From NCBI GenBank assembly GCA_963775425.1, contig CAVZJB010000012.1, positions 160,001 through 224,000 of the forward strand: a stretch of DNA of 64,000 nucleotides, read 5' to 3'. Below the pieces are notes generated by a model. It did not search any database and was not told the origin of the DNA. It saw only the letters and a program-made list of their open reading frames with translations. Positions within the stretch are counted from its first letter, which is position 1, and each line of letters begins with the position of its first letter. This document shows positions 4,728 to 18,501 of the stretch, one piece after another. A program made the position numbers and the translations under genes. The DNA is from an uncultured delta proteobacterium. Its GTDB lineage: Bacteria; Myxococcota; UBA727; VGSZ01.

Positions 4728-6101
4728 TCAGTCGCCGCCGGTGCTGCTGTAGAAGACCGCGCCGTGGTCGCCGCCGACCCAGATGTTGTTGTTGTCGAGG
4801 GCGAAGCCCGTGTAGATGCGGCCGAAGGTGCCGAAGGGCGGCGCGTCGTCCATGGCCGCCTGCAGCGCGCCGAGCGCGCCCACCGGGGCCCAGGTGTCGC
4901 CGGCGTCGGAGGTCTTCAGGAGGAACGCGCCGCCGCTGCCGATCTGGCCACCGGCCCAGCCGTGCGTGCCGTCGGGGGCGAAGAAGATCGTGGCGATGGC
5001 GACGACGTTGCCGGTGGCGAGCGCAGGCAGCGTGGTGGCCGACCAGGTCGCGCCGCCGTCGATCGTCTTGAAGATGGTGCTGGCGCCGCCGGCGCCGAAG
5101 CTCGAGTCCCCGACGGCGACGAAGCCGACCGTGTTCGAGGTCATGAGCGCCACCGACGGGCCGACCGCGTTGGCGTTGTCCGCGTCGACGCCGGCCAGGT
5201 CCTTGATCTGGAAGCTGGTCCCGCCGTCGCTGCTCACGCAGGCGAAGTAGGCGTCGTCGATGTCCTTGCTCCGGCCCACGTACACCACGGTGTTGCCGTC
5301 AGGCGTGACGCTGCTGATCTCGTAGGAGTTTTCGGTGCGGCGGTCGCGCGGGCCGACGTCGCAGTCACCGGTCGGGATGGGGTTCGGGTTCGTCGGGTTC
5401 GCCTCGGGCGCCCAGGTCTCGGTGTACAGCGTGGTCGGCCCCGGCGGATCGGTCGAGGTGTTCACGACGCCAGAGCCGAACATCTCCACGAAGCCACTCG
5501 GTGTCTGGAAGAAGCCGGCGAGCGAGGCGAGGCCATAGGAGGAGTTGGTGTCCACGGCGTTGAACGTGGCGAAGTGGTCGTCGCTGGTGAACACGGCTGA
5601 GCCGGTGTCGAGCGCGACGGTGATGTTCGTCGACGTGGGGGTGATGCCCATGACGCCGAAGTCGCCGAGGGAGCCGCCCGGCGGGTCCGTGAAGTTGGTG
5701 TCGTCGAACGCGAAGTCCGTGATCTGCGTTGCCGAGGCCTTGTAGAGCGCGCCGACGCCCGAGCCACGCGTGCCGATGAAGCCGCTGTCGGTGGACTCGA
5801 AGTAGATGGCGGTGACGTCGTCGGTGTCGTGGGCGGTGTTGACGCTGTCGAGCACCGTCAGCGTGGTCCAGGGATCGCCTTCGCCCTCGCCCTCGCCTTC
5901 GCCCTCGCCTTCGCCCTCGCCTTCGCCCTCGCCCTCGCCTTCGCCTTCGCCTTCGCCTTCGCCTTCGCCTTCGCCTTCGCCTTCGCCTTCGCCTTCGCCT
6001 TCGCCTTCGCCTTCGCCTTCGCCGGGGCAGGCGCACACGAACAGGAGGGGGGACGCGACCAGAAGCGGAACAATGAAACGCAACATGGGGAACCTCGTCA
6101 T
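4728..6101 (-). CDS. Lipoprotein with (GE)24 linker and BNR/Asp-box (YCF48/sialidase-like) beta-propeller
   Basis: Signal peptide ending VCAC, GE tract, Asp-boxes SSDGGTSF, TIDGGATW, TSDAGDTW, TSDDHFATF; start is ATG 6101 or 6086. Confidence 0.8.
   Translation of the reverse strand: MTRFPMLRFIVPLLVASPLLFVCACPGEGEGEGEGEGEGEGEGEGEGEGEGEGEGEGEGEGEGEGEGEGEGEGEGDPWTTLTVLDSVNTAHDTDDVTAIYFESTDSGFIGTRGSGVGALYKASATQITDFAFDDTNFTDPPGGSLGDFGVMGITPTSTNITVALDTGSAVFTSDDHFATFNAVDTNSSYGLASLAGFFQTPSGFVEMFGSGVVNTSTDPPGPTTLYTETWAPEANPTNPNPIPTGDCDVGPRDRRTENSYEISSVTPDGNTVVYVGRSKDIDDAYFACVSSDGGTSFQIKDLAGVDADNANAVGPSVALMTSNTVGFVAVGDSSFGAGGASTIFKTIDGGATWSATTLPALATGNVVAIATIFFAPDGTHGWAGGQIGSGGAFLLKTSDAGDTWAPVGALGALQAAMDDAPPFGTFGRIYTGFALDNNNIWVGGDHGAVFYSSTGGD
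5877..6023 (-). repeat. Hexanucleotide tandem repeat (GGCGAR)n encoding (Gly-Glu)24-Gly
   Basis: Read directly; the GAA and GAG variants occur in blocks. Confidence 0.95.
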
Positions 6102-6237
6102 GGGCGCGAAGGATGGCGCCGCACGGGGGGTGCGCGCAACGGGGATTTGGCCGGCGCGGGCGCGCCGCCGCGCGGATCGGTTCACGGGGAGGCACAGGTG
6201 AGACGGCTCGCCCCCCGCGCGCCTACAATCGGGGAAC

Positions 6238-7800
6238 ATGAGGATCGCGGGCTATGACGTCGAGGGTCACCTCGGCGCCGGCGGCATGAGCCAGGTGTGG
6301 CTTGCGCGGGGGAGCGCGGGCCTCGTCGTGCTCAAGCGGCAGCTCAACCCCGCCGACGACGTGAGGCTGCGGGACGAGGCGCGGGTGGGGATGCGGATGC
6401 GTCACCCGTGCGTGGTGCAGACCCTCGACCTCGTCGAGCACGAGGGGCGGCCGGTGCTCGTGCTCGAGTACGTCGCGGGAGCGTCGCTGGTGGCGCTGCG
6501 CAAGCGGGGCCCGATGGCGCCCGCGGCGGTCTGCCGGATCGGGGCCGACATCGCCGAGGGGCTCGCGGCGTTGCACGACGCCGTCGACGAGGAGGGGCGC
6601 CCGCTGCGCTGCCTGCACCGGGACGTGTCGCCGTCGAACATCATCGTGTCCCACGACGGGCGCGCGCGGCTCATCGACCTCGGCATCGCGCGCTTCTCGG
6701 ACGCCGGCGCGGAGCGCACGAGGACGGGCGAGCTCCGCGGGACCATCCGCTACCTGGCGCCGGAGTTGTTCGAGGCCAAACCGCATACGCCGCAGACGGA
6801 CCTGTGGGCGCTCGGCGTCTGTTTGTTCGAGGCGGCGCTCGGGCGGCCGTCGGTGACCGGGCCCGAGGCGGTGATGCTGGCGACGGTGGTGCGCGGGCGT
6901 TTGTTCGATCTGCAGCCGGGCGAGGCGCTGCCGGGCCCGGTGGGCGCCGCCCTCGGGCGCCTGTGCGCCCCCGAGGGCGAACGGCTGCCGGGCGCGCTCG
7001 CCGCCGTGCGCGCGCTTCGCGACGCCGAGCGCGCGTACGGGGACGGGCGCGCGGCCGCTTCGCGCGCGGTGTACGCCGTGGTCGGGGGCGAGCCGCCGCC
7101 GAGCGACGACGACGTCCGCGGCGCCCTCGAGGAAAACCCCTTCACGCGCTTCGCCGCCACGACGTACTGCGGCGTCGACGACGACAATCTCTTTGGCGAC
7201 ATCGCCGTCGCCACCGCGGCGACCCCCTCGGCGGCGTTCGACGTGCCCGCGCCGGTGACGGTGCTGGCGGAGCCGCTGTCGGTGCCGCCCTCGACGTCGC
7301 CGGGCGCGCAGCCCGCGCACCGCACCGGCTGGGAGATCCCGTCGCCGATCACCGGCGGCGACCCGCTCGTCCACGTCGAGGAGGAGCCTCCCGCGGAGGT
7401 CCCCGCGCCCTCCCACGACGACGAGCTCGCGGACCTCCACCGCAGCGCCGTGGGGAGCTGGATCCCGGCCGCCGCCGCCCTCGGCGTCGTCGTCCTCGTG
7501 GTCGTCGCCGTCGTGGTCTTCCTGCGCTCCCGCACCTCGCCGGAGCCCGCGAGCGCCTCGGCCACCGTCGAGGCCCCCGCCGCCCCCTCCGCTCCCACCG
7601 GCAGCGCCGCGCCCGGCGACGACGGCGCCGCGCTCATCGACGGCGCCGCTCCCGCAGGCGGCGCCGCTCCCGCACAAGGCGCCGCCCCCTCCGAAAGCGC
7701 CGCCCCTGCGGACGACGGCGCTGCAGCCGCAGACGGCGCCGCCGACGCTGCCGCTCGTGGGGCACCCGCGACCGCGCCTGCATCGTCGCCGTCGCCGTAA
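6238..7800 (+). CDS. Membrane-anchored Hanks-type Ser/Thr protein kinase
   Basis: LGAGGMSQV, VVLKR, HRDVSPSN, DLGIA, YLAPE, DLWALG; one TM helix followed by an Ala/Pro-rich tail. Confidence 0.92.
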   Translation: MRIAGYDVEGHLGAGGMSQVWLARGSAGLVVLKRQLNPADDVRLRDEARVGMRMRHPCVVQTLDLVEHEGRPVLVLEYVAGASLVALRKRGPMAPAAVCRIGADIAEGLAALHDAVDEEGRPLRCLHRDVSPSNIIVSHDGRARLIDLGIARFSDAGAERTRTGELRGTIRYLAPELFEAKPHTPQTDLWALGVCLFEAALGRPSVTGPEAVMLATVVRGRLFDLQPGEALPGPVGAALGRLCAPEGERLPGALAAVRALRDAERAYGDGRAAASRAVYAVVGGEPPPSDDDVRGALEENPFTRFAATTYCGVDDDNLFGDIAVATAATPSAAFDVPAPVTVLAEPLSVPPSTSPGAQPAHRTGWEIPSPITGGDPLVHVEEEPPAEVPAPSHDDELADLHRSAVGSWIPAAAALGVVVLVVVAVVVFLRSRTSPEPASASATVEAPAAPSAPTGSAAPGDDGAALIDGAAPAGGAAPAQGAAPSESAAPADDGAAAADGAADAAARGAPATAPASSPSP

Positions 7801-7999: not shown

Positions 8000-9142
8000 A
8001 TGAAGCTGACAAGCACACAGCGCGAAAGGGTCGATGCGACATATGAGTTCGCCCGCGCGCGCTTGTCGATCGGTGCGCGCGACCGTGACGCGAAGGGCCT
8101 CTTCGATCGCAAGGTGTGGCAAGAGGCCGCGGACTTCGGACTGACCGGCCTGCCCATCCCGGAGGAGCTCGGCGGCAGCGGCCTCGACGCCCTCGACACC
8201 GCTCTGGTCGTCGAGGCGCTCGGCCGAGGCTGTGAAGACGGCGGCCTCGTCTTTTCGTTGTGCGCACACATGTTCGCCTCCGCCGTGCCCATCTGGCGAT
8301 CGAAGGCGCAGCTCCACCACGACCGCTATCTGCGGGACATCGCGTCGGGAAAGCTCATTTGCTGCAACGGCACGAGCGAATCCGGAGCGGGCTCCGACGT
8401 GTACGCGATGAAGACCACCGCGCGGCGCGTGGGGAGCGAGTACGTCATCGACGGCAGCAAGGTGTTCATCACGAACGCGCCGGTGGCAGACCTGTTCCTC
8501 ATCTATGCGGTCACCGATCCCGGGCGCGGCTACTTCGGCATCTCCGCCTTCCTCTTGCCGCGCGACACGCCGGGGCTGCGCGTTGCGCGCGGAGACACCC
8601 GCAGCGGGCTGAGAACGTCGCCGTGGGGCACCGTCTACCTCGACGAGTGCGCGGTGCCGGAGAGCGCGCGCGTCGGCGCCGAGGGCGCGGGCGCCACGCT
8701 GTTCAACGACTCCATGATCTGGGAGCGCGGCTGCCTGTTCGCGTACTACGTCGGCGCGATGGAGCGGAGCCTCGCCCGCTGCGTCGAGCACGCGCGCGAG
8801 CGAACGCAATTCGGACGCCCGATCGGCACCAATCAATCCGTGGCGAATCGACTCATCGATATGAAGCTGCGCATCGAGACGAGCCGCATGCTGCTCCACC
8901 ACGCGTGCGCGCTGCACGGCTCGGGACAGCGGTGCGACAGCGCCGTCGCCATGAGCAAGTTGTGGATCTCCGAGGCGGCGGTCCAAAGCGGCCTCGACGC
9001 GGTGCAGATCTTCGGCGGGACAGGGGTAGCGACTGAAACCGGCATTGACGCCTTGCTGCGCGACGCCATTCCGGCGCGCATCTTCTCGGGCACGTCAGAG
9101 ATGCAGCGCGCGATCATTGCCAAAGACATGGGGTTGCCATGA
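8000..9142 (+). CDS. L-prolyl-carrier protein dehydrogenase (PltE/RedW/PigA/AnaB-like acyl-CoA dehydrogenase)
   Basis: ACAD motifs SESGAGSD, GSKVFITNAP, RTQFGRPIG. C-terminal RIFSGTSEMQR lacks the MCAD-type Glu, and WERG supplies the alternative base. GLVFSLCAHMFA segment; adjacent to A and PCP genes. Confidence 0.85.
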   Translation: MKLTSTQRERVDATYEFARARLSIGARDRDAKGLFDRKVWQEAADFGLTGLPIPEELGGSGLDALDTALVVEALGRGCEDGGLVFSLCAHMFASAVPIWRSKAQLHHDRYLRDIASGKLICCNGTSESGAGSDVYAMKTTARRVGSEYVIDGSKVFITNAPVADLFLIYAVTDPGRGYFGISAFLLPRDTPGLRVARGDTRSGLRTSPWGTVYLDECAVPESARVGAEGAGATLFNDSMIWERGCLFAYYVGAMERSLARCVEHARERTQFGRPIGTNQSVANRLIDMKLRIETSRMLLHHACALHGSGQRCDSAVAMSKLWISEAAVQSGLDAVQIFGGTGVATETGIDALLRDAIPARIFSGTSEMQRAIIAKDMGLP

Positions 9143-10707
9143 TGCGGCTCGATAGGCTCGTCACGTCCTGGGCGTCGCGCACACCACGGCAGATCGCCGT
9201 GTTCGGCGATGACGAGGCGCTGTCGTACGCGGCGCTCGATGACCTCGCGAATCGGTTCGCGCATTGGTTTCGGGCGCACGGCGTCAAGCCCGGCGACCGC
9301 GTCGGCGTTCACCTCCCGCGCTGCGGGCGCGCGATCGCCGCGATGCTCGGCGCGCTTCGAGCGGGCGCCGTGTATGTGCCGCTCGACCCCAGCTCGCCGC
9401 CTGCGCGCATGAAGCTCATCGCCACGGACTGCGACCTGCGCCACGTGGTGATCGCGCCGTACCTCCTCGACCGTTGGCTCGCCGCTGGCGTGCAGGAGCC
9501 CGTCGAGCACTTCGTCCTGTCGAGCGAGGGCGCGCTCGACGACGCGGCGCGAGCATCGGCGCAGGTGCACCCGTGGTCGGAGGTCCTCGCCGACAGCGGC
9601 GCGCCGCTCGACCCCGGGAGCGACTCGCCCGACGCGCTGGCCTACATCCTGTACACGTCGGGCTCCACGGGCGTGCCGAAGGGCGTGATGCTCTCGCACC
9701 GAAATGCGCTCGCGTTCGTCGATTGGGCCGCCGACCGCATCGACCTGCGCCCGAGCGATCGCGTGGCGAGCGTCGCGCCGTTCCACTTCGACCTTTCGGT
9801 GTTCGACGTGTGGGCGTCGCTGTCGCGCGGGGCGACGGTCGTCATCGTCGACGAGACCACGGTGTTGTCCGGGCAACGCATGCTCAGCCGCATTCGCGAG
9901 CAGAAGATCACCGTTTGGTACTCGGTGCCGTCGGCGCTCGTGCTGATGCTGGAGACCGGCCACCTGCACGAGCTCGACGCCGCGCTGATGCGCGTGGTGT
10001 TCTTCGCCGGCGAGGTCTTCCCGATGAAGCACCTCGCGCGCACGATGGCCGCGCTCCCTCACGCGCGCTTCTTCAATCTCTTCGGGCCCACCGAGACCAA
10101 CGTGTGCACCGGGTACGAGCTGCCCGGCGCGCCCGCCCCCGACAGCCCCGCCATCCCCATCGGCACCGCCGCGTCCGGCGACGAGCTCTCGATCCTCTCG
10201 CCCGAAGGCCGGCCGGTCGCCGACGGCGAGATCGGCGAGCTGTTCGTCGACGGGCCCACCGTGATGCTCGGCTATTGGGATGGAGGCCGCCGCACGCCGC
10301 CGCCGCGCCCCTACCCGACCGGCGACCTGGTGTCGCGCCGGGCCGACGGCGAGCTCATGTACCACGGTCGTCGTGATCACCTCGTCAAGGTGCGCGGCTT
10401 TCGCATCGAGTTGGGAGAGATCGAGGCCGCTGTCCATCAGCACGCAAAGATCAAAGAGTCGATCGCGATGGCCATCGAGCAGCAGCTCGTCGTCGTCGCG
10501 GTCCCCGCCGATCCCACGATCTCCGTCCTCGAGCTCAAGAAACATTGCGCCGCGCGACTCCCTCGCTACATGGTCCCGAGCGGAGTGAAGCTCGTCGAGC
10601 AGCTCCCGCGCACATCGAGCGGGAAGATCGACCGGGTGCGGACGCGGGCCGCCGTCATCGAGGGCGACGCCACGCTGCTCAAACAAGCCATACGCGAGGG
10701 GGTCTGA
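9139..10707 (+). CDS. Stand-alone adenylation enzyme, L-proline--PCP ligase type (PltF/RedM/PigI-like)
   Basis: YILYTSGSTGVPKG, FDLSVFD, TVWYSVP, FAGE, NLFGPTETNVC, GDL, KVRGFRIELGEIE, LPRTSSGKIDR. By-eye specificity code is about DLFYFALVCK, close to the pyrrole-pathway Pro code DLLYLALVCK. Confidence 0.85.
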   Translation: MMRLDRLVTSWASRTPRQIAVFGDDEALSYAALDDLANRFAHWFRAHGVKPGDRVGVHLPRCGRAIAAMLGALRAGAVYVPLDPSSPPARMKLIATDCDLRHVVIAPYLLDRWLAAGVQEPVEHFVLSSEGALDDAARASAQVHPWSEVLADSGAPLDPGSDSPDALAYILYTSGSTGVPKGVMLSHRNALAFVDWAADRIDLRPSDRVASVAPFHFDLSVFDVWASLSRGATVVIVDETTVLSGQRMLSRIREQKITVWYSVPSALVLMLETGHLHELDAALMRVVFFAGEVFPMKHLARTMAALPHARFFNLFGPTETNVCTGYELPGAPAPDSPAIPIGTAASGDELSILSPEGRPVADGEIGELFVDGPTVMLGYWDGGRRTPPPRPYPTGDLVSRRADGELMYHGRRDHLVKVRGFRIELGEIEAAVHQHAKIKESIAMAIEQQLVVVAVPADPTISVLELKKHCAARLPRYMVPSGVKLVEQLPRTSSGKIDRVRTRAAVIEGDATLLKQAIREGV

Positions 10708-10979
10708 TGGAAACGCACGTCATGACGGACATTCGGAACTACATCGTGAGCACCTGGCTGGACGGGGACGGCCGCAGCTTCGACGACGACACGGACCTGC
10801 ACCAGGCGGGCATCCTGGACTCGTTCTCGACGCTCGCGCTCATCGCCTATCTCGAAGAGCAGTGGAAGGCGCAGCTCGACCCGTCGGACGTGAGCATGGA
10901 GGCGTTCCGCACGGTGAAGTCGCTCACGCAGTTGGTGCTCGTGAAGTCGATGAACGCCAAAGCGCCCGCCGCCGAGTGA
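10707..10979 (+). CDS. Peptidyl carrier protein (PltL/RedO/PigG-like)
   Basis: 90 aa, GILDSF phosphopantetheine site, translationally coupled (TGATG) to the A enzyme. Confidence 0.85.
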   Translation: METHVMTDIRNYIVSTWLDGDGRSFDDDTDLHQAGILDSFSTLALIAYLEEQWKAQLDPSDVSMEAFRTVKSLTQLVLVKSMNAKAPAAE

Positions 10980-11011
10980 CGAGGACGAGAACCTGAAGTT
11001 GGAGGGGTGTC

Positions 11012-11242
11012 ATGGAAGAGAAGCTGCGGGAAGTTGTTGCCAAGATCGCGGAGACAAGCCCCACGTTCTCGTCGAGCGTGAACATCCGTGACGATTTGAA
11101 CGTCGACTCGGTGCGCATCTTCGAGATGGTCTTCGAGATCGAGCGCACCTTCAACGTCGTCATGCCGGAGGAGAAGCTCGCGGATGTCGCCACGTTCGAC
11201 GACCTCTTGAGCGTCGTTCAGTCGCTGCAAGCGCGCGCTTGA
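11012..11242 (+). CDS. Acyl carrier protein
   Basis: 76 aa, acidic, DDLNVDSVRIFEMVFEIERTF; GGAGGGG SD. Confidence 0.88.
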   Translation: MEEKLREVVAKIAETSPTFSSSVNIRDDLNVDSVRIFEMVFEIERTFNVVMPEEKLADVATFDDLLSVVQSLQARA

Positions 11243-11280
11243 CCCGTCATGGAGATCAACACGACCAGGGCGGAGAAGTG

Positions 11281-12498
11281 ATGTCACGACGCGTCGTCAT
11301 TAGCGGTTGCGGGGTGGTGAGTCCGGCCGGCAATGACCTCGCGTCATTCTGGTCCGCCCTCATGAACGCCTCGTGCTTCATCCAGCCGCTGCGCGGGTGG
11401 GCGTGCCAGGGACTCGACGCGCTCCGGGGCGCCGAGGTGTCGCTCGCACCCGAGGACGCCTTGCCGGCCTCGATCGACACCGACGCGCGCCGCGGCCGCA
11501 GCGATGAGCTCGCGCTCGCGGCGGCGCGCCGCGCCATCGCGGACGCGGCCTTGCCCGCCGGCTCGAGCCGTGACGTCGTCGGCGTCGTGCTCGGCACCAC
11601 GCTCGGCCAGGAGCGCCAGGTGAGCGCGCTCAGCGAGGGCGTGGCCGCGGGAGGGGACGACGCCATCGACGCCGGCTTCATGGATTGCTGCGACAACCAC
11701 CACCTCGCCGCGCTCATCGCGCGGGCGCACGGCCTCGGCGGGCCGCTCATGGTCAACGCCACCGCGTGCGCCTCCGGGAACGCGGCGCTCGCGTGGGGCT
11801 ACGAGCTGGTCGCGTCCGGCGCGACGCACACCATGGTCGCCGGCGGCGTCGACACCTTCACGCGCCTCATCTACTGCGGCTTCAGTCGAATGGGCGCGCT
11901 GTCCAAGGGTGTGTGTCGTCCGTTCGACAAGCAACGCGATGGCGTCTCCTTCGGAGAGGGCGCGGGCATCGTCGTTCTCGAGGAGCTCGAGCACGCGCGC
12001 GCGCGCGGCGCCCACATCTACGCGGAGCTCGCGGGTTACGGCATCAGCAACGACGCGTACCACCTGACGGCGCCGGAGAAGAGCGGCGAAGGCTTCGCGC
12101 GCGCCATGAAGCAAGCGCTCGCCACCACCGGCCTCGGCGTCGACGATGTCGACTACGTCAGCGCGCACGGGACCGGCACGCCGTACAACGACCTCGGCGA
12201 GACGCTCGCTGTGAAGTCCGTCTTCGGCGCGCGGGCGCCGCGCGTGCCGGTGAGCTCGATCAAGTCGATGATCGGTCACACCAACGGCGCTGCGAGCGCC
12301 ATCGAAGCCGTCGCCTGCGTCCTCGCGCTGCAGCACCAGATGCTGCCGCCCACCGTGAACCTCACCGAGCCCGATCCGGAGCTCGACCTCGACTACGTCT
12401 CCGGCGGCGCGCGCCGGGCCAGCGTCGACGTCTGCCTCAACCTCGCGGCCGGCTTCGGCGGCTTCAACGTCTGCACCGTCATCAAGGGGGCGCCATGA
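11281..12498 (+). CDS. Beta-ketoacyl-ACP synthase (FabF-like / type II PKS KS)
   Basis: RRVVISGCG, ATACASG (active Cys), CRPFD, GEGAG, SAHGTGT, KSMIGH, AGFGG; alternative start 11239. Confidence 0.92.
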   Translation: MSRRVVISGCGVVSPAGNDLASFWSALMNASCFIQPLRGWACQGLDALRGAEVSLAPEDALPASIDTDARRGRSDELALAAARRAIADAALPAGSSRDVVGVVLGTTLGQERQVSALSEGVAAGGDDAIDAGFMDCCDNHHLAALIARAHGLGGPLMVNATACASGNAALAWGYELVASGATHTMVAGGVDTFTRLIYCGFSRMGALSKGVCRPFDKQRDGVSFGEGAGIVVLEELEHARARGAHIYAELAGYGISNDAYHLTAPEKSGEGFARAMKQALATTGLGVDDVDYVSAHGTGTPYNDLGETLAVKSVFGARAPRVPVSSIKSMIGHTNGAASAIEAVACVLALQHQMLPPTVNLTEPDPELDLDYVSGGARRASVDVCLNLAAGFGGFNVCTVIKGAP

Positions 12499-13715
12499 CA
12501 ACCGCGCTCACCAGCGCCGACGACGCGGTCGCGGTCACCGGCGCCGCGCTCTTGTCGCCCCTCGGAGACTCCGTGGCGGACGTCATGGCCGCGCTCGACG
12601 AGCAGAGCTCGGCCATAGAGCCCGCGGACGACCCCGAGCTCGACGGCGCCGGCGCGGCCACCATCGCCGACTTCGACGCCGGCCGCTACGCCGCCGTGCG
12701 CGGGATGCGCGTGTACAACCGCACCACCCAGCTCGCGATCTGCGCGGCGCGGCGGGCGCTCGATGACGCGAGGCTCGACACCGAAGGCGACGGCGGCGCG
12801 GAGGTCGGCGTCGTGATGGCCTCGACGTTCGGTCACCTCGGCACGCTGCTCGAGTACGATCGCAGCCTCGTGAAAAATGGCGTGGCGCGGACGAACCCCG
12901 TGCTCATGCCGCTGGGCTTGCCGAGCGCCCCCGGCGCGGCCACGGCCCTCGCGTTTCGCGCGAAGGCGTTCTCCATCACCCTCGCCGACGGCGCAGCGTC
13001 GTCGCTCGACGCGCTCGGGCTGGCGATGCGACTCCTTCGCGCCGGGCGCGCGCGCGCCTGCGTCGTCGTCTCCGCCTTCTCCGTTTGTCGAGAGCTCTCC
13101 ATCTCCGCCGCGCGCGCCGGCCGGCTCGCCGCCCCTGACGACGTGCGCGTCTTCGATGCGCAGAGCAAAGGTCGTGCGTTCGGTGAAGGCGCCGCGGCGC
13201 TGGTGCTGGAGCGCGCGGACTGCGCGAGCGCGCGAGGTGCTCGGCCGCAGGGCTTCGTGTGCGGGCACGCCGCCTCGTTCGCGCGCGAGCGCGCGGAGCT
13301 CTCCGCTGCGCTGCGTCGGGTCGGCGACGCCGCGCTGCGCGGCGCCCACGTCGACCCAGGCAAGATCGCGCTGGTGTCCTCGGGCGCCGGCGGCGCGCCC
13401 GACGACGACCGCGCCGAGGCGCGCGCGTTGCTCGACCTGTTCGAGGGCTCGGGCTCCGGCCCCGTGGTCACGGCGATCAAGGGCAACCTCGGCGACGCCG
13501 TCGACGCCGGCGGGCTGATGCAGGCGGTGTTGGCGCTCGCGGCGCTGCGCGCGGGGCGCGTCGCGCCAATCGCGCGCCTGCGCGAGCCGGCGCTGCCCGG
13601 CCTGTGCTACGCGCGGGAACCGCAGCCCCTCGACGGCGGGCGGGCGTTGGTCACCGCCACGGCGCGCACCGGCGCGTGCGCGGCGCTCGTCCTCGCGAGC
13701 GCCGCCGATGTCTGA
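12495..13715 (+). CDS. Chain-length-factor-like non-catalytic ketosynthase
   Basis: KS fold (VAVTG, GEGAAALVLE) but the catalytic Cys is replaced (DGAASSLDAL) and both His are lost (SSGAGG, KGNLGD); overlaps the KS stop (ATGA). Confidence 0.8.
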   Translation: MTTALTSADDAVAVTGAALLSPLGDSVADVMAALDEQSSAIEPADDPELDGAGAATIADFDAGRYAAVRGMRVYNRTTQLAICAARRALDDARLDTEGDGGAEVGVVMASTFGHLGTLLEYDRSLVKNGVARTNPVLMPLGLPSAPGAATALAFRAKAFSITLADGAASSLDALGLAMRLLRAGRARACVVVSAFSVCRELSISAARAGRLAAPDDVRVFDAQSKGRAFGEGAAALVLERADCASARGARPQGFVCGHAASFARERAELSAALRRVGDAALRGAHVDPGKIALVSSGAGGAPDDDRAEARALLDLFEGSGSGPVVTAIKGNLGDAVDAGGLMQAVLALAALRAGRVAPIARLREPALPGLCYAREPQPLDGGRALVTATARTGACAALVLASAADV

Positions 13716-14463
13716 AGCGGCGCGGCGCGAGCAGACGGTGGCGATCGTGACCGGCGGGTCGCGCGGGATCGGCAGGTCCATCGTCGAGCGCCTCGCTGTG
13801 GCCGGTGTCGACGTCCACTTCACGTACATCAAGAGCGCTGATGCCGCGAACGCGCTCCTCGATCGACTGCGCGCGGCGGGGCACGCCGTCGAAGCGAGCT
13901 GCTGCGACGCGCGCGACATCGCCGCGTCGCACGCGTTCGTCGAGCAGGTGATCGCGCAGCGCGGCAGGCTCGACGTCCTGGTGAACAACGCCGGCATCAC
14001 CGACGACGCTTTGTTGCCGGCGACGAGCTCCGAGAGCTGGTCGTCGGTCCTCGAGACCAACCTGAACGGGCTGTTCGGTGCGACCAAGAGCGCGGCGAAG
14101 CAGATGATGCGGCAGCGCGCCGGTCGCATCGTCAACCTGACGTCGGTGTCCGCCCTGATCGGCATCGCGGGGCAGACGAGCTACTCGGCATCGAAGGCGG
14201 CCATCATCGGGTTCACGCGCTCGCTCGCGCACGAGATGGCCCGTTGGGGCGTCCCCGTGAACGCCGTCGCGCCCGGCTTCGTCGACACCGACATGCTCCC
14301 CTTCCAGGCTCCGGAGCAGCGCGGCGCAGCGATGGCGCGGGTTTGGATGCGTCGCTTCGCAAAGCCGGAGGAGATCGCGGGGCTTGTGCGGTTCCTCGCG
14401 CTCGAGGCGCCGACGTACCTCACGGGACAGACCCTCGTGATCGACGGTGGGCTCAGTGCGTGA
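13708..14463 (+). CDS. fabG: 3-oxoacyl-ACP reductase (FabG-like ketoreductase)
   Basis: TGGSRGIG, NNAGIT, YSASK, VAPGFVDTDM, ITGQ-like LTGQTLVIDGG. Confidence 0.9.
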   Translation: MSEAARREQTVAIVTGGSRGIGRSIVERLAVAGVDVHFTYIKSADAANALLDRLRAAGHAVEASCCDARDIAASHAFVEQVIAQRGRLDVLVNNAGITDDALLPATSSESWSSVLETNLNGLFGATKSAAKQMMRQRAGRIVNLTSVSALIGIAGQTSYSASKAAIIGFTRSLAHEMARWGVPVNAVAPGFVDTDMLPFQAPEQRGAAMARVWMRRFAKPEEIAGLVRFLALEAPTYLTGQTLVIDGGLSA

Positions 14464-14491
14464 CGTGCAACGCGAGTAGAGGAGGCCGCTG

Positions 14492-15178
14492 ATGAGCGTT
14501 CGATACCTTGAAGCGGAGCGGCGATTGCGGCTGCCGCCTGTGAGCGAGCGGGGCGCATCGAACCTCAACCCCGAAGGGATGTCGCTTTTGCAGTTGTGGC
14601 GGGAGGACCTGCGCACGCACGACGACAACCCGTTCGAGCAGGGCTTTTGGGCCATCGCCGTGCACCGCTTCGGCAACTGGCGCATGGATCGCATCAAGCT
14701 CGTACGCGCGCCCTGCACGGCCGTGTACCTGGCGAGCCACAAGCTGGTGGAGGTCTTCGCGGGGATCACGCTCAGCTACACGACGAAGGTCGGGCGCCGC
14801 GTGCGGATCTGGCACCACGGCGGCATGGTGCTTGGCGCGCGCTCCATCGGCGACGATGTGCACATCCGACAAAACGTCACGTTCGGGGTCGCGCAGACCT
14901 TCAACAACGAAGACCTGCCGATCATCGAGGACGGCGCCCACGTCGGCTGCGGCGCCGCGGTCCTCGGGCGCGCGCTCGTCGGCAAGAACGTCAAGATCGG
15001 CGCGAACAGCGTCGTGCTCCATGACTTGCCGGACGGCGCGGTGGTCATGGGCGTGCCCGCGAAGGTGGTGAGCACGTCGACGCCGATCAAAGAGGCGCCG
15101 ATCAGCTCGACGACGACGATCAACTCGACGACGATCAAAGGGGCGACGATCAAAGAGGTGACGGCTCCGCGATCTTGA
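14492..15178 (+). CDS. Serine acetyltransferase-like hexapeptide (LbH) O-acyltransferase
   Basis: HRFG, IWHHGGMVL, IRQNVTFG, IGANSVVLHDLP, GVPAKVV; GAGGAGG SD. Confidence 0.85.
   Translation: MSVRYLEAERRLRLPPVSERGASNLNPEGMSLLQLWREDLRTHDDNPFEQGFWAIAVHRFGNWRMDRIKLVRAPCTAVYLASHKLVEVFAGITLSYTTKVGRRVRIWHHGGMVLGARSIGDDVHIRQNVTFGVAQTFNNEDLPIIEDGAHVGCGAAVLGRALVGKNVKIGANSVVLHDLPDGAVVMGVPAKVVSTSTPIKEAPISSTTTINSTTIKGATIKEVTAPRS
15083..15160 (+). repeat. Five degenerate 15-18-bp tandem units (mCGATCA core) in the acyltransferase tail
   Basis: ccgatcaaagaggcg / ccgatcagctcgacgacg / acgatcaactcgacg / acgatcaaaggggcg / acgatcaaagaggtg. Confidence 0.75.
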
Positions 15179-16184
15179 CGACCTGCTTGCCGAGGTTCTT
15201 GCCCGTGAACACGCGCGCCAGCGCGGCCGGCGCGCGCTCGAGCCCCACCTGCACGTCGACGCGGTCCTTGATCTTCCCCGCCCGCAACCACGCGCCGATC
15301 GCCGCCATGGCCTCCGCGGCGCGCGGCATGTAGTCGATGACGACGAAGCCCTCCATCCGCCCGCGCTGACGCAGGAGCCGCAGGTAGTTCCGCGGGCCGA
15401 CGGGCGGCCACGCCTCGGTGTACGTCGCGATGGCGCCACACAGAACGACGCGTCCGCGGCGCGCGAGGAGCAGCAAGGCCGCGTCGAGGATGCGGCCGCC
15501 CACGTTGTCGAAGTAGACGTCGATGCCGTCGGGACAGGTCGCGCGCAGCCGCGTGATCACGTTGTCGTTGCGGTAGTCGATGGCGGCGTCGAACCCGAGC
15601 TCCTCGGTCAGGTAGCGGCACTTGTCGGGGCCGCCGGCGATGCCCACCACGCGGCACCCCTGGAGCTTCGCGATCTGGCCGGCCATCGAGCCCGTGGCGC
15701 CGGCGGCGCCCGACACGACGACCGTGGCCCCCGGCGCCGGCGCGCCCACGTCGAGCATCCCGAAGTACGCCGTCATGCCCGCGGTGCCGAGCGCGCTCAT
15801 GGCGGTCTCGATGGACACGCCCGCGGGCAGCGGCAGCGTCGTGTACGGCGCGTCACCGGGGACGCGCGCGTAGTCCTGCCAGCCGAACATGCCCTGCACG
15901 ACCTGCCCGGCGGCGAAGCGCGGATCGCGCGACGCGATGACCTCACCCACGGCGACCGAGCGCATCACCGCGCCGAGCTCCACCGCGGGCAGATACGTCT
16001 CTCCCGACGCCCACCCATGCTGCGCGGGCTCGCAGGACAGATAGAGGTTGCGCACGACGATCTCGCCGTCGGCGGCGTCGGGGATCTCCGCCTCGGCCCA
16101 TTGAAAGTCGTCGACGCACAGCGCCCCTCGCGGACGGCGCGCGAGCAGCCACTGCCGGTTCTTCTTGGGTGCGTGGTCGTTCAT
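15150..16184 (-). CDS. NADPH-dependent MDR oxidoreductase (CurA/prostaglandin-reductase-like ene-reductase)
   Basis: NRQWLLARRP, TAYFG, VSGAAGATG, GIAGGPDKC, GIDVYFDNVGG, GKNLGK. Confidence 0.9.
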   Translation of the reverse strand: MNDHAPKKNRQWLLARRPRGALCVDDFQWAEAEIPDAADGEIVVRNLYLSCEPAQHGWASGETYLPAVELGAVMRSVAVGEVIASRDPRFAAGQVVQGMFGWQDYARVPGDAPYTTLPLPAGVSIETAMSALGTAGMTAYFGMLDVGAPAPGATVVVSGAAGATGSMAGQIAKLQGCRVVGIAGGPDKCRYLTEELGFDAAIDYRNDNVITRLRATCPDGIDVYFDNVGGRILDAALLLLARRGRVVLCGAIATYTEAWPPVGPRNYLRLLRQRGRMEGFVVIDYMPRAAEAMAAIGAWLRAGKIKDRVDVQVGLERAPAALARVFTGKNLGKQVVKIAEPSPL

Positions 16185-17134
16185 GGGTGGAGCCAATTGT
16201 GCACGACGCCGTCGAGCCACTCGCGGGGCCGCTCCGGGTCCTCTTTGCCCTGTACGCGTCGGCGCACGCGGAACGACGCGCCGCCGACGAACATCGCGAC
16301 GTTCGCCGCCCACAGCGTGGCGCGCCCGAAGTTCTTCAGGAAGTAGTGTCGTCGTGAGTCGAAGACGTAGCGCGGCATCCTGTCGCGCCCGACGCCGTGG
16401 GAGTGCACGCCGGTGGACGCGCCGCCGACGTGCGCCACCGATGCCTCACGCACGTAGTCGACGTCGAAGCCCGCGCGCTTGGCGCGCAGGCACAGATCTG
16501 TCTCCTCGAAGTAGAGAAAGAACGCCTCATCGAACAGCCCGATGCGCTCGAGGGTGGCGCGGCGGATCATCATCGACGCGCCCGCGACCCAATCGACGGA
16601 GCGGGTGACCTCGGGGATCGGCATCACCATCGCGCGATCCCGCAGCAGGGACGACACCACGCCGAGCCGGGCGGTGCGCTCGAGCTCGCCGAGCACGCTC
16701 GGGAAGCGGAAGCACGACGCCTGCCCGCTTCCCGAGAAGTCGCGGATGAAGCTCCCCGCGAGGCCGGTGTGCGGGTGCGCGTCGAGGTGGCGCATCAAGG
16801 TCTCCGCGGTGCCTGGGTCGGAGCGGGCGTCGGAGTTCAACAGGTAGAAGTAGTCGGGCGGATCTGCGGACGCGAGCCCGCGCCTCAGCGCGACGTTGTT
16901 GCCGAAGCCGAAGCCACCGTTATGTCCCGACTGCAGCACCTCGACCGCGTCGCCCCAGCCGCGCGCCGCCACGGCCGCCGCGAACGTCTCGAAGCTGCCG
17001 TCCTGGGAGTCGTTGTCGACGACGCAGATGCGCGACGCGGGCAGCCGGCGGACCTCGTCGATGACGCCCTCGATCGCGCGCAGCGTGAGCTCCGCCGTGC
17101 GCCAGTTGAGGATCACCGTGACCAGCCTGCTCAT
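16181..17134 (-). CDS. Glycosyltransferase family 2 (WbbL/GT2-like)
   Basis: VILNW, VVDNDSQDGS, NGGFGFGNN, LLNSD, WVAGASMM, FDEAFFLYFEETDLC. Confidence 0.92.
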   Translation of the reverse strand: MSRLVTVILNWRTAELTLRAIEGVIDEVRRLPASRICVVDNDSQDGSFETFAAAVAARGWGDAVEVLQSGHNGGFGFGNNVALRRGLASADPPDYFYLLNSDARSDPGTAETLMRHLDAHPHTGLAGSFIRDFSGSGQASCFRFPSVLGELERTARLGVVSSLLRDRAMVMPIPEVTRSVDWVAGASMMIRRATLERIGLFDEAFFLYFEETDLCLRAKRAGFDVDYVREASVAHVGGASTGVHSHGVGRDRMPRYVFDSRRHYFLKNFGRATLWAANVAMFVGGASFRVRRRVQGKEDPERPREWLDGVVHNWLHP

Positions 17135-17367
17135 CGCCCCTCCGCACACTTCGACAGCATCGCTTGTGATGACGTCGAGCGGTGCGGCGGGCAACCTCAC
17201 GGATCGCGTGACGTCGTTGCGCACGGGCGTCGCGTGTGAACGTTCAGGTCGAGCTCGTGCTTGCGACCGGCCGCACGTCGACGTTGTCGTGTGCGCCCGC
17301 CGCGAGCGAGCGTGCACCCTTCGAACGCACAGACGCCTCGCGAGCCGCGCTCGACTATGGTCGGGCG

Positions 17368-18501
17368 ATGCTGCTCCCCGCGCTCGTCCTCACCATCGCT
17401 TCCGCCCACGGACAGTTGCCGGCGTCGCTGTTCCTGCAACGCTGGCTCGTCGTCGAGGCCGAAGTGGCCGGCCACCGCGCGCCGTTCGTCGTCGACACGG
17501 GCGCCAACCGCACGCTGATCGACGCCGGGTTCGCCGCGTCGGTCGGCGTGCAGACCGGCCACTGCATCGACGTCCCCGGCGCGATGGTGGGCAAGCTCTG
17601 TCGCGGCGTGCTGCCCAAGCTGCACTTCGCGGGCCGCGACTTCGACGGGATCGATGCATTCGTGAGCGACATGACCAGGAGCGAGCTCGGTGAAGCGCTG
17701 GGCGTGGCGGGCCTCATCGGCGCCGATGTCCTCTCGCGCGGCATCCTGGTCATCGACTACCCGTCGTCGCGCTGGCAGCTCCTGGCGCCCGACGCGTGGA
17801 AGCCGGGGCCGGCCGCGCACCTCGTACCCGCCCCGGTCGACGGTGGGGTCATGCGTGTGCCCGCCGAGATCGACGGGAAAGCGGTGAAGCTGCTCCTCGA
17901 CACCGGCAACGCGGGCGACACGATCGCTCTCAACGTTCCCGAGCTGGAAAAGAAGCTCAGTGCCGCGTCGCGCCGGCTCACGCTCCCCGGCGGGCTCAAG
18001 AGCGGCGCGGGCGGCGGCGCGGACATCGCGCCCACGCACGCGGCGCTTCGCGTGGGCGGCTTCACGTGGTCGGGCGCGCCGATGCAGGTAGCGCTCACCG
18101 GCACGCGCTCGGGAACGGTCATGCGCCGTGAAGACGGCATCCTCGGCGCAGGCTTCCTCAGGCACTTCCGTATCGCCGTCGACCTTGCCGGCGGCCGGCT
18201 GTGGCTGGAGCAGGTGTTGCCGTTCGGCTCTCTGGATCCCGGCGGCACCCTTGGCATGCTCGCCCGGCCCGCGAAGGGCCGGCTCGTGGTCGCCTCGGTG
18301 GCGAAGCAGGGGCCGGCGGGCAAGGCCGGCATCGTCGCCGGCGACGCCATCGTCGCCATCGACGGCGTCGACGTCGGCGAAAACGCTTCGGTGCTGTGGC
18401 CGCTCGCGTCGTATCGAGCGCCGGGCGAGCGGGTGGCGCTCACCATCGACCACGGCGGGTCCCGCCGCCGCGTCGTCGTGGTTGCCGTGGTACGGCCCTG
18501 A
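17368..18501 (+). CDS. Secreted protein with two retropepsin-like aspartyl protease domains and a C-terminal PDZ domain
   Basis: VVDTGA...GLIGADVL, LLDTGN...GILGAGFL, PAGKAGIVAGDAIVAIDG. Confidence 0.85.
   Translation: MLLPALVLTIASAHGQLPASLFLQRWLVVEAEVAGHRAPFVVDTGANRTLIDAGFAASVGVQTGHCIDVPGAMVGKLCRGVLPKLHFAGRDFDGIDAFVSDMTRSELGEALGVAGLIGADVLSRGILVIDYPSSRWQLLAPDAWKPGPAAHLVPAPVDGGVMRVPAEIDGKAVKLLLDTGNAGDTIALNVPELEKKLSAASRRLTLPGGLKSGAGGGADIAPTHAALRVGGFTWSGAPMQVALTGTRSGTVMRREDGILGAGFLRHFRIAVDLAGGRLWLEQVLPFGSLDPGGTLGMLARPAKGRLVVASVAKQGPAGKAGIVAGDAIVAIDGVDVGENASVLWPLASYRAPGERVALTIDHGGSRRRVVVVAVVRP

Follow-up and report, generated by a model that had tools for sequence, protein, structure and literature searches.

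Pyrrolyl-carrier chemistry is the entry to pyoluteorin, the prodiginines, and the bromopyrroles and to the decoration of the aminocoumarins. The known partners that take over the pyrrolyl unit are a type I polyketide synthase (PKS) in the case of pyoluteorin, the fused protein PigJ or RedX, a halogenase/thioesterase set, and the sugar acyltransferase of the aminocoumarins. The three parts that make up the modules PltF/PltL/PltE, PigI/PigG/PigA, RedM/RedO/RedW, and Bmp4/Bmp1/Bmp3 were met again in a gene cluster of an uncultured delta proteobacterium assigned to the Myxococcota (GenBank assembly GCA_963775425.1). The cluster lies at 8000-17134 of a 64,000-nucleotide stretch (contig CAVZJB010000012.1, positions 160,001 to 224,000 of the forward strand), which is referred to as the window and to which coordinates given without a locus number refer. 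Its core, a cassette at 8000-14463, encodes in this order a flavoenzyme of the acyl-CoA dehydrogenase (ACAD) fold, a stand-alone adenylation (A) enzyme, a peptidyl carrier protein (PCP), an acyl carrier protein (ACP), a ketosynthase (KS), a chain-length-factor-like KS paralogue (CLF), and a 3-oxoacyl-ACP reductase (KR). Unlike in the pyrrolyl modules named above, the downstream partner is here a FabF-like KS of the dissociated type, encoded together with a CLF, an ACP, and a KR.

The cassette combines two known logics in a new way and is not a new kind of system. The PigJ/RedX step follows the same logic: a KS accepts the pyrrolyl group from a PCP for condensation with malonyl bound to another carrier, and of the two KS-like units one is inactive. 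In the cassette, however, the two units are separate proteins and not fused, a KR follows, and there is no PigH-type domain dependent on pyridoxal phosphate (PLP). The highly reducing type II PKSs, such as Iga11/Iga12 of ishigamide and ApeO/ApeC of the aryl polyenes, share with the cassette a FabF-derived KS, a partner without Cys, a discrete ACP, and a FabG-like KR. The cassette differs from them in that it has no dehydratase and that its predicted starter is a PCP-borne pyrrole. The aurachin proteins AuaB-E of Stigmatella are reportedly a myxobacterial type II KS/CLF set that is primed by a carrier-loaded, ATP-activated aromatic acid and performs few extensions. They are said to differ from the cassette in their anthranilate starter, in the cyclization of the product to a quinoline, and in the lack of an ACAD, a KR, and a medium-chain dehydrogenase/reductase (MDR).

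The observed gene cluster is real, conserved, and uncharacterized. The explanation that suits it best as a whole, with a probability of about one half, is that the cassette would make a short pyrrole-capped acyl thioester that is handed to an acceptor; this prediction is drawn from the sequences of the genes and their relatives. The initial annotation of the window knew of no characterized cluster of such architecture. No description of a proline- or pyrrole-primed dissociated KS/CLF architecture was found in full-text searches of the literature.

Conservation and Distribution of the Cassette

Related loci were gathered by scans with a 28-sequence alignment and were selected by similarity of the CLF. 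At least 119 different homologues of the CLF were listed at 47-66% identity, the few named ones being from Polyangiaceae, Anaeromyxobacteraceae, and metagenome-assembled genomes (MAGs) labeled 'Myxococcales'. The scans gave seven orthologous loci in species genomes, all of them MAGs, and 57 loci in metagenomes, i.e. 64 syntenic loci (given as L numbers below). The metagenomes and MAGs concerned were obtained from peat, wetland, and soil, and no record bears the title of a cultured isolate.

The core order ACAD, A enzyme, PCP, ACP, KS, CLF, KR was kept among the detected core genes in 63 of the 64 loci, and the loci that carry a name belong to the Myxococcota. In the exception, L015, the KR and a gene for a left-handed beta-helix (LbH) acyltransferase precede the KS, so that the LbH lies inside the core. 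All seven core genes were detected in 24 loci; the others are cut by contig ends, and the small ACP was missed by tblastn in four. Because the loci had been chosen by CLF similarity, only the other six genes count as independent, and the recurrence of the order in 63/64 loci puts the arrangement far beyond chance. Identity to the window proteins across the loci was lowest for the ACP (39-63%) and highest for the ACAD (67-75%); the conserved core taken together was put at 46-75%. The architecture is a widespread family in uncultured soil bacteria and not a one-off. The caller used for genes in the related loci was GC3-based and crude, and antisense shadow open reading frames (ORFs) are among its calls.

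The distribution of the cassette is patchy. An orthologue of the CLF was present in 10 of 401 sampled genomes of the window's phylum, or in 9 of 400 when G195, which gave only a weak match, is left aside. By family, 7/67 genomes of one family and 0/10 of the window's own family carried it. Among 40 related genomes there was no CLF orthologue (best match, 33% identity), and the comparative context was therefore drawn from MAGs and metagenomes.

L173 (G048:C122) is a more distant variant, with an ACAD of 61%, an A enzyme of 54%, a KS of 50%, and a CLF of 35% identity; it has an extra 1.25 kb between ACP and KS, and no KR was detected when the window KR was used as the query. In L169 (7654-8540 and 12281-13843) matches to the A enzyme and to an unknown gene are broken into three or four pieces, which would fit frameshifts, pseudogenes, or assembly errors.

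A Predicted Proline-to-pyrrole Module

The first gene of the cassette (8000-9142, plus strand) encodes a protein with three Pfam Acyl-CoA_dh domains, taken to be an FAD-dependent L-prolyl-carrier-protein dehydrogenase of the PigA/RedW/PltE type. It scored 561 bits against the NCBIfam PigA equivalog NF053553, passing the cut-off of 500, and 417 bits against the RedW model, where the cut-off of 650 was not reached. Among solved structures, PigA (5zw0, 384 bits) came first, followed by AnaB (4irn, 309 bits) and Bmp3 (6cxt_B, 304 bits). Generic ACADs gave at most 232 bits. The PigA cut-off was passed by all 26 ACADs of related loci (543-585 bits), or 27/27 with that of the window. In the genome itself the window ACAD was the sole one of 13 ACAD matches above this cut-off, and no ACAD in 14 control genomes exceeded it.

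The A enzyme (9139-10707, plus strand; Pfam AMP-binding and AMP-binding_C) passed the amino-acid adenylation domain model TIGR01733 with 358 bits (cut-off 317). Its top match in the PDB was PltF (6o6e_B, 395 bits), the L-proline-carrier ligase of pyoluteorin, and an L-proline--carrier-protein ligase of the PltF type is predicted. As read from the alignment with PltF, the pocket DLFYFALVCK is identical to DLLYLALVCK of PltF in 8 of 10 positions, the positions being tentatively assigned by GrsA numbering. Across 32 family members, this Pro-type pocket shows hardly any variation. The PCP (10707-10979, plus strand; Pfam PP-binding), the expected carrier for the prolyl and pyrrolyl groups, had its top PDB matches in carriers of pyrrole pathways, namely the Bmp1 carrier protein (6cxt_A), PigG (7thn_E), and PltL (2n5h), and its phosphopantetheine attachment site, Ser40, is kept in 29/29 members.

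With PltF, the Bmp1 carrier protein/PigG/PltL, and PigA as the best solved relatives and the PigA equivalog passed, the trio is of the prolyl-to-pyrrolyl carrier type, just as the initial annotation had it. ACAD, A enzyme, and PCP are thus predicted with high confidence to make pyrrolyl-2-carboxyl-S-PCP. AnaB, however, stops at dehydroproline, i.e. after a two-electron oxidation, and because it scores as high on the ACAD as the pyrrole-former Bmp3, the four-electron oxidation is not proven from sequence. An AnaB-like reaction would furnish a dehydroprolyl (pyrroline) starter and finally an acyl chain resembling the pyrrolidine or pyrroline alkaloids; the MDR reductase of the cluster could then reduce a conjugated C=C or C=N bond, and an added reductase would suit a partly oxidized ring. 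We consider this outcome improbable, as PigA is clearly the best relative of the ACAD and the whole set of 27 family ACADs passes the PigA equivalog.

The same equivalog might suggest a remnant or variant of the bipyrrole (MBC) pathway of prodiginines and tambjamines, all the more so as the KS gave a partial match of 90 bits to the PigJ model (cut-off 900, not reached). Such an origin is extremely improbable: PigJ is missing, the best match in the genome having 159.5 bits against the cut-off of 900, and genes for a PLP-dependent PigH-like protein, a methyltransferase, or a condensing enzyme of this pathway were neither present in the window nor recurrent in the related loci. Since the PigA equivalog fires on 27/27 ACADs though no PigJ/MBC gene is present, automatic annotation will wrongly suggest prodigiosin. 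In practice, NF053553 ('prodigiosin MBC biosynthesis dehydrogenase') will lead the annotation to prodigiosin where none can be made.

The Predicted Extension Set

The ACP (11012-11242, plus strand; Pfam PP-binding) is presumed to be the malonyl and extension carrier. It matched models of ACPs of the fatty-acid-synthase type below their cut-offs, and its Ser33 is kept in 36/36 members. The KS gene ends at 12498 on the plus strand and starts with TTG at 11239 or ATG at 11281; relatives align only from residue 10-23 onward. The protein has the N and C domains of the Pfam ketoacyl-synt family and is predicted to be active, Cys177, His310, and His347 each being kept in 41/41 members. The CLF (12495-13715, plus strand) shows weak KS domains and lacks the catalytic Cys. 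Ala takes this position in the window, and among 56 members it is held by Gly (41 members), Ala (11), or Asp (4), never by Cys. The KR (13708-14463, plus strand; adh_short and KR domains) is a FabG-type short-chain dehydrogenase/reductase that passed the FabG subfamily model NF009466 (246 bits, cut-off 222). The motif TGxxxGIG and the residues Tyr159 and Lys163 are kept in 48/48 members. The initial description of a free-standing KS beside a CLF, together with an ACP and a FabG-like KR, is therefore supported by an intact Cys-His-His set, a Cys-less CLF, and a separate ACP.

KS and CLF were placed by ranking of PDB and NCBIfam bit scores. With none of the curated KS models examined did the KS attain the cut-off, including that of FabF (TIGR03150, 371 bits, cut-off 494) and that of AmcF (NF058662, 263 bits for the KS and 127 for the CLF, cut-off 325). 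Membership in the prodiginine, cispentacin (AmcF/AmcG), and FabF groups was rejected, as the equivalog cut-offs were not reached. In the PDB, the KS was nearer to 9s5h_B (348 bits) and to the housekeeping FabF of Bacillus subtilis (291 bits) than to Iga11 (249 bits) or the actinorhodin KS (219 bits). The CLF followed the same ranking with 9s5h_C (116 bits), B. subtilis FabF (102 bits), Iga11 (83 bits), and the actinorhodin KS/CLF (77 bits). In an atlas look-up, the sequence cluster of the KS was dominated by Myxococcota. A FabF-like gene distinct from the cassette KS lies on contig C5 of the genome.

Chains B and C of 9s5h form one heterodimer, named only '3-oxoacyl-ACP synthase', in which C is the inactive partner with Val at the Cys position. 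The 9s5h/9s5i heterodimer is the closest solved relative of the cassette KS and CLF; in its inactive chain, too, the Cys is replaced by a small residue. The code 9S5H was not found in any relevant paper. A KS/CLF-like pair with a Cys-to-Val exchange, amxFabF2/amxFabFmut, is described for a putative ladderane cluster of anammox bacteria in a preprint (bioRxiv 10.64898/2026.05.19.726425). Its text gives no PDB code, but as the Cys-to-Val description fits chain C, 9s5h/9s5i is probably this anammox pair. Organism and cluster are different from those of the cassette, and the ladderane cluster lacks a proline module.

From family membership and conserved residues, it appears likely that the KS/CLF pair extends the pyrrolyl starter.

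Proposed Pathway and Possible Role of the MDR Reductase

The steps that the cassette is predicted to catalyze can be arranged in a short pathway. In step 1, the PltF-like ligase would load L-proline onto the PCP, and in step 2, the PigA-like flavoenzyme would carry out a four-electron oxidation to pyrrolyl-2-carboxyl-S-PCP. In step 3, the KS with its Cys-less CLF would take over the pyrrolyl group and condense it with malonyl-ACP to 3-oxo-3-(pyrrol-2-yl)propanoyl-ACP; extension might stop after a single round or go through a few. The FabG-like KR would then form the 3-hydroxy derivative (step 4). In step 5, with no dehydratase encoded, the hydroxyl might be lost spontaneously or through the housekeeping FabZ, giving a pyrrolyl-acryloyl unit. 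A hydroxyl on the carbon beside a pyrrole ring ionizes readily (azafulvene chemistry), and because it leaves so easily, the missing dehydratase and the frequent presence of an ene-reductase would be explained together. The pyrrolyl-acryloyl unit would be the pyrrole counterpart of aryl-vinyl carbonyls, and the MDR could convert it to a pyrrolyl-propanoyl unit. In step 6, the acyl group would be passed to an acceptor by locus-specific enzymes, for which the LbH and a family-2 glycosyltransferase (GT2) are the candidates here. Steps 1-4 are predicted from family membership and conserved residues; steps 5 and 6 are inference.

The MDR (15150-16184, minus strand; Pfam ADH_N_2 and ADH_zinc_N) belongs to the NADPH-dependent double-bond reductases of the alkenal/one, PTGR/CurA family. 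It reached 329 bits with the CurA equivalog NF058644 (cut-off 440, not reached). Its best PDB match was 4b7c (348 bits), followed by double-bond reductases (the plant DBRs), zingerone synthase, and PTGR1/2. In its domain pair and NADPH motif it agrees with CurA, raspberry-ketone/zingerone synthase, the plant DBRs, and PTGR1/2, and the motif, of the AAGATG type, is kept in 19/19 members. Zingerone synthase and the plant double-bond reductases act on aryl-vinyl ketones. Of the 12 loci with at least 4 kb on both sides, 9 have an MDR no more than 4 kb away from the core. The gene is single-copy in the genome, and 39/40 relatives had no match at E 1e-40 or better, so it is not a housekeeping gene in the window's lineage. 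Reduction of a C=C bond in the chain of the pathway is predicted for this enzyme, and for this role we see even odds. In L017 (3105-4105) the match to the MDR is split into two pieces in different frames, as would result from a frameshift, a pseudogene, or an assembly error.

The initial annotation had named two possible products, a short pyrrolyl-hydroxyacyl chain attached to a glycan or lipid and a pyrrolyl-polyene, an analogue of the aryl polyenes. A pigment of the latter kind would arise from iterative cycles of KS/CLF, KR, and a dehydratase and would be anchored to a lipid or a glycan. The gene types met here (an adenylating enzyme, two carriers, KS/CLF, KR, an acyltransferase, and a GT2) resemble those of aryl-polyene and xanthomonadin clusters, and the KR reached 222 bits with the model of flexirubin FlxB, below its cut-off of 340. 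However, the window contains no dehydratase, and among about 150 flank ORFs of the 64 loci (one representative per ORF cluster, ORFs of at least 110 amino acids within 4.5 kb) there was only one, a MaoC gene in L124. The ene-reductase, on the other hand, is a common companion. Pfam families for LolA-like/MMPL proteins, thioesterases, and lysophospholipid-type acyltransferases were absent from the window and not recurrent in the related loci, and thus the export and lipid genes typical of the aryl-polyene (Ape) cluster were not found; a GT2 is present. The KS, moreover, stayed below the cut-off of every proteobacterial KS equivalog examined. The polyene proposal is accordingly unsupported and considered highly improbable.

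The conserved core lacks a thioesterase, and this could also point to self-release: after one extension the pyrrole nitrogen would attack the thioester, and the resulting bicyclic pyrrolizinone would be reduced by the KR and the MDR, with LbH and GT2 either tailoring the product or unrelated to it. The closure of the five-membered ring should be geometrically possible. Many loci, however, carry candidate off-loading enzymes directly after the core, namely nonribosomal peptide synthetase (NRPS) modules with condensation, adenylation, thiolation, and thioesterase domains (C-A-T-TE), alpha/beta hydrolases, LbH proteins, or ATP-grasp enzymes. These suggest that a carrier-bound or free acyl intermediate is passed on, and self-release has in our view only an outside chance.

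Candidate Acceptor Genes and Points against the Pathway

The LbH (14492-15178, plus strand; Pfam Hexapep) is a putative O-acyltransferase resembling CysE, EpsC, and WcaB. Its scores of 100 bits with EpsC (cut-off 150) and 95 bits with CysE (cut-off 211) did not reach the respective cut-offs. Only the LbH part (residues 49-195) aligns with serine acetyltransferases (SATs) in the PDB (72 bits), and the N-terminal SATase domain is lacking. The GT2 (16181-17134, minus strand; Pfam GT2 families) is rhamnosyltransferase-like, its NCBIfam matches, to rhamnosyltransferase and MftF, being weak only.

The position of the LbH in the operon of the KR and the coupling of the GT2 to the MDR point to an acylated sugar or glycan as the product. 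Recruitment of the two genes into the pathway is argued for by the 28-nucleotide gap between KR and LbH on the same strand, by the ATGA overlap of the cassette-specific MDR with the stop codon of the GT2, and by the recurrence of the layout. A KR followed by an LbH, converging on an MDR, was met again, with other LbH subfamilies, in L013, L092, L103, and L147, and pairs of an LbH and a glycosyltransferase adjoin the core in L017, L098, L104, and L144. Among the 31 loci whose flanks measure 3 kb or more, 9 have genes for glycosyltransferases or polysaccharide export within about 6 kb, a raw count taken without a background rate. The initial annotation had drawn reductase, acyltransferase, and GT2 together into one syntenic system. 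For the reductase this holds in 9 of the 12 fully assessable loci and in 0 of 5 genome loci of another family. For the acyltransferase it holds in part, in that an LbH of one or more of three subfamilies lies downstream of the core in 13 of the 30 loci with at least 1.5 kb of downstream sequence. It does not hold for the GT2, which has an orthologue near the core in just 3/64 loci (36-43% identity) and which, paired with an LbH, also occurs where there is no cassette. Since GT2 and LbH exist without the cassette as well, what connects them with the pathway is their operon coupling in the window and the repeated co-location in other loci. LbH and GT2 may form the acceptor branch of the pathway, a role to which we give clearly less than even odds.

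Several observations speak against the transfer of a pyrrole-capped acyl chain as outlined. AnaB, as a two-electron enzyme, is as close to the ACAD as Bmp3. The MDR is missing in 3 of the 12 fully assessable loci and is absent from all five twenty-kilobase genome loci (L168-L172; L172 is probably the same contig as L146) of another family, the one with most hits. Enzymes of the MDR family normally use free enals and enones and not ACP thioesters. The LbH resembles O-acetyltransferases that use acetyl-CoA. Orthologues of the GT2 (47-60% identity) are present in 10/10 genomes of the same family, all of which lack the cassette, and in 4/4 cassette-less loci examined the GT2 has, no farther than 1.5 kb away, a homologue of the window LbH (41-55% identity). 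The co-occurrence of both genes in cassette-less relatives marks them as a native deoxysugar-glycan module of the lineage, which here may merely neighbor the cassette.

If so, the cassette and its MDR would have landed in this module or become joined to it, the core chemistry would be the same, LbH and GT2 would be bystanders, and the pyrrolyl-acyl group would leave as a free acid or go to an acceptor whose genes lie elsewhere. A paralogue of the GT2 with 70% identity elsewhere in this genome (G000:C11:1065697-1066647, L164) is in line with this alternative; its locus has the order GT2, RmlA-like, LbH, RmlB-like. In the LbH tree, the window copy fell into a well-supported clade (96/96) shared with native copies and with one tandem LbH clade associated with the cassette. 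Branching inside this clade was unresolved, so that the window copy is not set apart from the native ones. Two tandem LbH clades accompany the cassette in L017, L098, L101, L104, L116, and L144. The spacing of KR and LbH, the coupling of MDR and GT2, and the recurrent layouts described above run counter to a bystander role, which we consider less likely than not.

The boldest form of the acceptor hypothesis is that a secreted or surface glycan or glycolipid of uncultured Myxococcota is decorated with a pyrrole-capped acyl group, which the proline-primed KS/CLF cassette would make and which an O-acetyltransferase-like LbH, recruited from an ordinary glycan module, would transfer from the ACP. 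It appears rather improbable. If it were true, modification of the envelope or the exopolysaccharide would take a new form in this pyrrole-acylated glycan, and the pyrrolyl-carrier logic would have been put to a new use outside antibiotics and pigments. Next to the GT2 paralogue locus lie two genes for GH25 lysozyme-like proteins, of which one has an SLH domain.

Variable Neighbors of the Core in Related Loci

The genes that may serve for the hand-off differ between the loci and comprise LbH proteins, NRPS modules, alpha/beta hydrolases, and ATP-grasp enzymes. NRPS modules of the C-A-T-TE or A-T-TE type were found near the core in L012, L091, L125, and L141, and a set of an ATP-grasp enzyme, an esterase, TerB, and an unknown protein in L096, L113, L120, and L146. 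Two alpha/beta hydrolases follow the MDR in L016 (7256-8464), L114 (12748-14784), and L129 (9329-11197). Sfp-type phosphopantetheinyl transferases (PPTases) are encoded near the core in L099, L102, L113, L120, L127, and L134.

A B12-binding radical SAM enzyme adjoins the core in at least eight loci (L017:4259-5326, L110:11912-13744, L130:3470-5362, and also L091, L095, and L169-L171) and is not present in the window. It is TIGR04190-like (329 bits, cut-off 500) and may C-methylate the ring or the chain.

The alpha/beta hydrolases of L016, L114, and L129 resemble exosortase-A-associated hydrolase 1 (TIGR03100; 131 bits in L129, cut-off 168) and hydrolase 2 (TIGR03101; 87 bits in L129, cut-off 203). 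The second-best NCBIfam match of the window A enzyme was the exosortase-A-associated ligase TIGR03098 (286 bits, below the cut-off of 592). Together these likenesses hint at a possible distant link to an unexplained cassette of ligase, carrier, hydrolase 1, and hydrolase 2 in exosortase-A-associated exopolysaccharide loci. All of them are below the cut-offs, and no exosortase genes were seen.

Relation to the Literature on Type II PKSs

The variable hand-off genes amount to a natural experiment in which one acyl building block would be routed to different acceptors, and the cassette family is a good lead for genome mining. Such cassettes would probably escape rules that were built for aromatic type II PKSs. 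The words 'pyrrol' and 'prolyl' do not occur in a 2025 JBC review on type II PKSs (PMC12664062), and 'pyrrol', 'proline', and 'prolyl' do not occur in the main text of a 2026 paper on those of Myxococcota (PMC13213394). The latter survey calls type II PKSs rare in Myxococcota.

Gene Order, Overlaps, and Flanking Regions

All ten genes listed in the initial annotation were found at their positions, and the overlaps given there for 9139, 10707, 12495, and 13708 were likewise recovered. The plus strand from 8000 to 15178 carries eight genes, ACAD through LbH, joined by overlaps or very short gaps. ATGA overlaps connect ACAD and A enzyme (9139/9142) and KS and CLF (12495/12498), a 1-nucleotide TGATG overlap at 10707 connects A enzyme and PCP, and CLF and KR overlap by 8 nucleotides (13708/13715). 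The convergence of this operon on a pair of GT2 and MDR was also described correctly, including the overlap, as the 3' ends of LbH and MDR share 29 nucleotides (15150-15178). The order within the pair was corrected: the MDR sits between LbH and GT2. On the minus strand the GT2 comes first and the MDR second, and the two are joined by an ATGA overlap (MDR ATG at 16184, GT2 stop at 16183-16181).

Domains of a halogenase, a dehydratase, a thioesterase, a PPTase, or a transporter were detected neither in 8000-17134 nor in the scanned flanks (1-30228), in keeping with what had been claimed for the cluster. Two PPTase matches exist elsewhere in the genome, so this activity is available in trans. The window has a base composition of about 70% G+C; parts of the cluster are slightly lower, which was not taken as a sign of transfer.

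The flanking genes are unrelated to the cassette and encode NADH dehydrogenase subunits, a TrAA12-like protein, a Ser/Thr kinase, an aspartyl-protease/PDZ protein, RNase R, and a TetR regulator. The gene for the aspartyl-protease/PDZ protein (17236-18501) is divergent from the GT2, and a search of 20 related genomes gave no match to its product with an E value of 1e-20 or lower. Flank synteny with the relative G006 was judged unreliable, the kinase being only 37% identical and the TrAA12-like protein matching only via a short repeat, and mapping of the insertion site was dropped. In the TrAA12-like protein (4728-6239, minus strand), about 50 residues are 96-98% identical to a protein of G006 (L165:1151-1363), and this match repeats at 6-nucleotide offsets, which points to a short tandem repeat.

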